DNA of 7,870 nt, taken from the IMG/VR virus record IMGVR_UViG_3300029490_000143; one strand, written 5' to 3'. The notes under the pieces are model-generated. The model worked only from the letters and a program-made list of their open reading frames with translations. It had not been told where the DNA came from and searched no databases. This document shows positions 4,191 through 4,216 of the stretch, in pieces; the stretch's first letter is position 1; every line of letters starts with the position of its first letter. Source of the DNA: a virus (lineage: Duplodnaviria > Heunggongvirae > Uroviricota > Caudoviricetes). The translations under genes and the position numbers were made by a program.

Positions 4191-4216
4191 AAAAAACCGC
4201 CATCAGGCGGCTTGGT
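4191..4216 (-). terminator. Candidate intrinsic terminator upstream of xis (hairpin CCGCC-TGAT-GGCGG followed by T6 on the - strand)
   Basis: On the + strand the sequence reads AAAAAACCGCCATCAGGCGG (4191-4210). On the - strand this gives a 5-bp GC stem, a 4-nt loop and TTTTTT. The stem is short, so confidence is moderate. Confidence 0.4.

Follow-up and report, generated by a model that had tools for sequence, protein, structure and literature searches.

The region just upstream of xis in a lambdoid prophage remnant carries a short GC hairpin and a T tract that together probably form a Rho-independent terminator for leftward transcription, a native lambda element kept in the remnant; we put the probability of this reading at roughly 70%. 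The window, by which we mean the whole 7,870-nt stretch of DNA that was analysed, covers the left end of a lambdoid prophage that is inserted at att-lambda and heavily deleted, and it retains the complete native lambda control region at the int-xis end, comprising the putative terminator hairpin, the CII box, the promoter pI and the xis start. The hairpin itself was already known, being lambda's own sequence and having been predicted as the terminator t5_lambda in 2014.

A GC hairpin with a T tract just upstream of xis on the minus strand had been proposed from the letters alone, and this description was borne out. Positions 4191 to 4216 read GAAAAAACCGCCATCAGGCGGCTTGG on the plus strand and CCAAGCCGCCTGATGGCGGTTTTTTC on the minus strand, and the xis ATG (4163-4161) lies 30 nt beyond the 3' end of the stem. 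Folded as RNA, the minus strand of 4185-4220 gives a single hairpin of eight pairs (five G-C, one G-U and two A-U), with UUUUUUCUU directly 3' of the stem, counted from the base of the G-C core; the first U's are common to stem and tract. Folding energy was the check that the original prediction had named, and it came out at -13.0 kcal/mol, compared with -6.5 +/- 2.2 in dinucleotide shuffles (z = -2.9, with 3 of 200 shuffles equally stable). Coordinates of the hairpin and of the features around it are collected in the table.

Table. Features of the window; coordinates are window positions, in descending order where a minus-strand element is read 5' to 3'.
Feature	Coordinates	Strand	Remarks
ybhJ (host gene)	16-1245		
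ybhC (host gene)	1479-2762		
attL core GCTTTTTTATACTAA	2809-2823	+	exact match, 0 expected by chance; left prophage end adjoining ybhC
int, 356 aa	2897-3967	-	353/356 identical to lambda Int
xis, 72 aa	3945-4163	-	71/72 identical to lambda Xis
pI transcription start, putative	~T4150	-	from spacing to the CII box
pI -10 hexamer TGTACT	4162-4157	-	overlaps xis ATG; 13 bases past the CII box
CII box of pI, TTGC-GTGTAA-TTGC (TTGCGTGTAATTGC)	4176-4189	-	pattern match and lambda identity
U-rich tract TTTTTTCTT	4188-4196	-	six-T run = 4196-4191
Stem-loop	4194-4213	-	8 bp, 4-nt loop; lambda 29109-29128
Hairpin 5' arm AAGCCGCC	4213-4206	-	
Hairpin loop UGAU	4205-4202	-	
Hairpin 3' arm GGCGGUUU	4201-4194	-	
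Hairpin core, 5 G-C pairs	4210-4206 with 4201-4197	-	
lambdap35 (orf55) 3' remnant	4203-4264	-	lambda annotation, alignment, translation
Deletion joint	4261-4264		4-base overlap GCTA (+ strand)
YbcO, RusA, Q antiterminator	right of joint	+	
Mutator-family IS transposase gene	5680-6936	-	
Lipocalin_2 (Blc-like) C-terminal fragment, 62 aa	7043-7231	-	
IS3-family (rve) transposase ORF	7206-7862	-	

The element has the anatomy expected of an intrinsic terminator: a G+C-rich RNA stem-loop, a U run straight after the stem, and a position at a gene's end in the sense direction, with the lambdap35 TGA stop (4205-4203) inside the loop. Its pairing is also kept in relatives, which, in a small and related sample, is supportive only. 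The proposal that this is a leftward terminator ahead of xis and int thus stands as far as anatomy, folding energy and orientation go, while termination itself, and its efficiency, are predictions made from the sequence. That the hairpin might be bidirectional, also stopping rightward transcripts that run antisense to int and xis toward ybcO, rusA and Q, is improbable: the plus strand does form the same five-pair core with an added CAAG/CUUG pairing, at -10.4 kcal/mol, and its tail CUUGGUGUUCUUUC is U-rich, but the tail is interrupted, leaving no uninterrupted U run, the fold stands out little from shuffled sequence (z = -1.7, with 14 of 200 shuffles as stable), and to the left of the hairpin there is no known or predicted rightward promoter.

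The setting of the hairpin is that of a prophage end. A protein identical to this Int adjoins ybhC in all eight of the E. coli assemblies listed, CP001164.1 included. The deletion joint has lambda-type sequence from upstream of xis on its left; on its right the 3' end of ninE comes first, and then ybcO, rusA and Q. Similarity of phage records to the int/xis region ends at 4264, and that to ninE-ybcO-rusA begins at 4261. The window contains no cII, which falls in the deleted interval between the xis-upstream sequence and ninE, and pL, nutL, N and cII are all lost with that interval. None of 5,426 complete E. coli genomes contains this joint; in GTDB species representatives a 34-mer of the joint had no match, and a 19-mer matched only two unrelated Bacillota MAGs, both by chance. 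A related prophage also sits by ybhC in accession CP001164.1 (locus L128), which we take to be E. coli O157:H7 EC4115, but its joint is another one and connects ninE to a truncated bet. To the right, the lipocalin fragment and the IS3-family ORF overlap by 26 bases (7206-7231), which looks like a gene cut by an IS.

Aligned with lambda, the window is 100% identical from 4264 through the xis ATG, and 4191-4216 corresponds exactly to lambda 29106-29131 (window coordinate + 24915 = lambda coordinate). The hairpin had been tied to the deletion joint, as a barrier to transcription entering from there; this part of the original prediction has to be amended, as the hairpin is native to lambda and unrelated to the joint at 4261-4264. 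Over this stretch the window and t5_lambda have the same sequence; what differs is that in the window the deletion joining orf55 to ninE breaks off orf55 48 nt above the stem. We considered whether the truncated orf55 might still be translated through the hairpin and rejected this, as the remnant has no ATG, GTG or TTG start in the window.

Lambda's GenBank annotation gives no terminator at the site, only a 55-codon GeneMark ORF, lambdap35 (29118-29285), which belongs to no Pfam family. Bloch et al. (2014, PLoS One, Table 4; PMC4195576) list t5_lambda as AAGAACACCAAGCCGCCTGATGGCGGTTTTTTCTTGCGTG, predicted by ERPIN and RNAmotif at -11.2 kcal/mol; it is a prediction only in that paper, neither tested nor discussed there, and we placed it at 29098-29137 on the minus strand of lambda. 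This was the sole paper containing the sequence in a full-text literature search that covered the key older papers in part, and within that same search no experimental mapping of RNA 3' ends at the hairpin site was found.

Two well-known lambda elements could be mistaken for the hairpin. The classical terminator tL3 belongs to the same operon and strand and is the same kind of element, and both would be overridden by N antitermination. However, tL3 follows exo, which fits Bloch's t1_lambda, placed by us at 31255-31296 directly after exo; it is a different sequence at a different site, 2.1 kb upstream on the transcript, and has a longer stem, at -17.6 kcal/mol in the same fold. The sib/tI retroregulator was likewise rejected, since sib lies downstream of int across attP, where it forms an RNase III hairpin, and the hairpin described here lies upstream of xis, with the att core (2809-2823) on the opposite side of int.

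How often would such a combination arise by chance? In a loose terminator scan the hairpin is the sole minus-strand site in the window, including the whole interval between the window's right end and xis. That scan finds no enrichment overall (7 sites in the window vs 7.9 expected) and is too loose for judging significance. We therefore used a strict definition, namely a perfect 5-bp stem with at least four G-C pairs, a loop of 3-8 bases, and at least six T in the next eight bases including a run of five. By this definition the window has 2 sites vs 0.033 per shuffle, with any site at all appearing in 3% of 300 shuffles, and the whole 48.5-kb lambda genome has only 4 sites on both strands together. 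The other three lambda sites are 6101-6114 (+), between head genes D and E; 30689-30675 (-), which is Bloch's t2_lambda, between orf61 and orf73; and 33950-33933 (-), between ral and ea10. Rfam covariance models gave no match overlapping 4150-4260 at E <= 1. The strongest terminator-like hairpin of the window is another one, at 6986-7009 (+), where AGCCAGCC-TCCCCA-AAGGCTGGTT is followed by TTTTTCT; it sits between the start of the Mutator-family transposase gene and the lipocalin fragment, and has a weak, sub-threshold Rfam match to 'Betaproteobacteria toxic sRNA' (E = 0.014).

We compared the region upstream of xis across related phages by scanning IMG/VR with the first 26 bases of lambda xis, which returned more than 120 loci; among these plus lambda and the window itself, 121 had at least 120 nt of upstream sequence. 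Every one of the 121 has a GC hairpin with a T run within 80 nt upstream of the xis ATG. The hairpins fall into three classes. Class A, the lambda type (87 loci), has CCGCC-TGAT-GGCGG followed by T6, with the orf55 stop in the loop. Class B, the HK022 type (24 loci), has GCCGCA-TCAA-TGCGGC followed by T4-6 at the same position as A, and is intergenic, about 55-70 nt after the upstream ORF. Class C (10 loci) has GGAGC-TTCG-GCTCC followed by T6, about 30 nt further upstream and 9 nt past the stop of an ant gene. All of the classes retain a T run of 4-7, and representative segments of 40-42 nt fold at -14.2 (A), -10.5 (B) and -12.5 (C) kcal/mol.

Within the alignment of classes A and B, four core pairs are invariant, and the pair that closes the loop differs in a compensatory way on both sides, being C-G in A and A-U in B. 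At the sixth position G-U, G-C and A-U pairs all occur, and three loci have a U.U mismatch there. Overall, 85.9% of alignment cells are paired, vs 31-55% when the partners are slid, and the covariation score is 0.22, vs 0.00-0.10 when slid. With one compensatory and one variable pair in a small, related set, this covariation is supportive and falls short of proof. The HK022 hairpin (X51962 / NC_002166) accordingly resembles lambda's in its position relative to the CII box and xis, its four core pairs, its 4-nt loop and its T run, but differs in closing the loop with A-U and not C-G, in a sixth pair that is G-C and not G-U, in having no outer A-U pairs, and in being intergenic where lambda's overlaps a stop codon.

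The genes upstream of the hairpin are far less constant than the hairpin. In class A alone, four or more distinct joints fall in the roughly 60 nt upstream of it, the window's deletion among them, and the upstream gene may be orf55, a 99-aa ORF or a Lar-like ORF, while the hairpin remains attached to xis throughout. Upstream of xis, the similarity shared by lambda-type and HK022-type sequences (X51962 / NC_002166; IMG/VR L003-L122) starts at the T tract. Because it starts exactly there, the terminator appears to mark the mosaic boundary of the pI-xis-int module. The pattern of conservation in these sequences is what would be expected from selection for a terminator ahead of pI and xis, and we take it as supportive.

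This comparison bears on whether the palindrome has a transcriptional role at all. The 5' arm is coding and the loop holds the lambdap35 TGA, so that the hairpin could be a by-product of encoding the orf55 C-terminus (...EHQAA-stop) or a neutral leftover, with the T run belonging to the region upstream of pI; a core of just five G-C pairs would suit such an origin, and so would the status of the ORF as no more than a GeneMark prediction without a Pfam family. We consider this unlikely, since the hairpin persists, intergenic, where other genes replace orf55, and since HK022-type and ant-type loci have different hairpins with a T run in the same place; the compensatory pair change and the rarity of the combination by chance weigh in the same direction.

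The T tract might alternatively act at the level of DNA. Only a single C separates the T6 run from the CII box (TTGC-N6-TTGC), and with A/B homology beginning at the T tract the tract travels with the promoter; the T6/A6 tract and palindrome could then be a UP-like or protein-binding element of pI that aids CII activation, the RNA hairpin being secondary. Class C argues against this, since it differs at -63 to -40 and has its hairpin and T run 30 nt further upstream, which leaves no fixed DNA element conserved at that position; across the classes what is conserved is a hairpin with a T run in sense orientation. No element of this kind was found at pI in published work. We regard a DNA-level role as very unlikely.

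A third alternative places the function in RNA that has read through the site, as a 3' stabiliser of processed orf55/ea8.5 messages or as a site where the antiterminated pL transcript is processed. RNA processing is known to control int expression in lambda at sib, which lies on the far side of int (PMC2951348), and longer minus-strand folds do extend the stem across the U tract, through pairing of ACACCAAG, reaching -16.1 to -18.5 kcal/mol. However, these longer folds have a weak z of only -1.6, their centroid structure is the core hairpin alone, and the extension is missing from classes B and C, which makes a read-through element quite unlikely. The extension itself pairs ACACCAAG (4218-4211, -) with CUUG-C-GUGU (4190-4182), just past the T tract, in class A loci only; in a read-through RNA it could bulge out U6 and take in the first TTGC of the CII box.

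Immediately beyond the hairpin comes pI, which is described as 'located in the xis gene' (PMC2951348). In the window its CII box flanks the -35 region and its -10 overlaps the xis start. Relative to the putative transcription start, the T tract lies at about -46 to -41 and the hairpin at about -63 to -44. A terminator in this position would work as follows. RNA polymerase coming from the right would transcribe AAGCCGCC-UGAU-GGCGG and then U6; the hairpin would form in the exit channel, the weak rU:dA hybrid would melt, and the transcript would end at about 4191-4188, stopping between one and a few bases short of the CII box. With a short stem of five G-C pairs, the efficiency of termination could be modest. 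CII recognises TTGC-N6-TTGC at pRE, pI and paQ, as Ho, Wulff and Rosenberg reportedly found in 1983, and the pI transcript reportedly starts with UTP, a result attributed to Schmeissner et al. in 1981.

In intact lambda, a terminator here would sort leftward transcripts by their origin. Those without N modification, for example from promoters in the exo-xis or accessory region, would be stopped short of xis and int. Int alone would be made only from CII-activated pI, whose transcript would begin inside xis, so that no Xis is made from it, and Xis together with Int would come only from N-antiterminated pL transcripts overriding the terminator. Since the intact phage normally expresses xis and int by way of such transcripts (PMC2951348), they must read through the hairpin. 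Xis would in this way be coupled to N-modified pL transcription, and Int alone to CII at pI. A functional terminator 1 nt from the CII box would also explain why accessory promoters upstream do not trigger excision. In lambda, a ribosome translating orf55 in step with transcription would stop in the loop and could hinder formation of the hairpin.

In the remnant, the terminator would protect xis and int against leftward read-through. Transcripts of this kind would run antisense to Q, rusA and ybcO and might come, for example, from the IS transposase gene (6936-5680). With pL, nutL, N and cII deleted, the terminator should be fully effective there, there being no override in cis, and because the orf55 remnant has no start codon, no ribosome should interfere with the stem. 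The original prediction had also held that int would then depend on an internal promoter. This is partly upheld: pI lies directly downstream of the hairpin, but it needs CII, and since cII is lost int is expected to be nearly silent. With the pI start placed inside xis, xis would be left without any promoter and is expected to be silent. Lacking a source of N or CII, and with no Xis and almost no Int expected, the remnant is probably fixed at its site.

The architecture that we favour has a parallel in Tn916. There too an intrinsic terminator, T1, shuts unregulated transcription out of the genes of a mobile element, and upon activation of the element it is overridden by a dedicated, element-encoded system of processive antitermination (PMC11658703). 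The sequences are unrelated, however, and T1 stands at the end of its element, where it stops read-in from the host, while the lambda hairpin is internal to the prophage; T1 was tested experimentally (PMC11658703), while the lambda hairpin is known here from its sequence.

A more ambitious proposal, which we consider a long shot, is that every lambda-type pI-xis-int module has the terminator as its obligatory but exchangeable left boundary, and that the efficiency of termination is tuned by how far the small upstream ORF is translated. A ribosome terminating at the stop codon in the loop would mask the stem, and the class A stop codon in the loop, together with the constant association of hairpin and module, is consistent with this. 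If it were true, leak-through into xis, and hence prophage stability, would depend on the translation of accessory genes. The site is conserved in lambda-type and HK022-type phages and was predicted in 2014. For the terminator reading as such, the significance extends little beyond annotation.

Two further features of the window can be recorded. A second TTGC-N6-TTGC motif lies at 6923-6936 (-), overlapping the TTG start of the transposase ORF; as a real CII box it was rejected as probably a chance occurrence, with 2 matches in the window vs 0.63 expected. Between ybhJ and ybhC, a cluster of REP-like repeats (1248-1476) gives recurring sub-threshold matches to the Rfam family naRNA4, the best scoring 57.1 bits vs a gathering score of 59.5.
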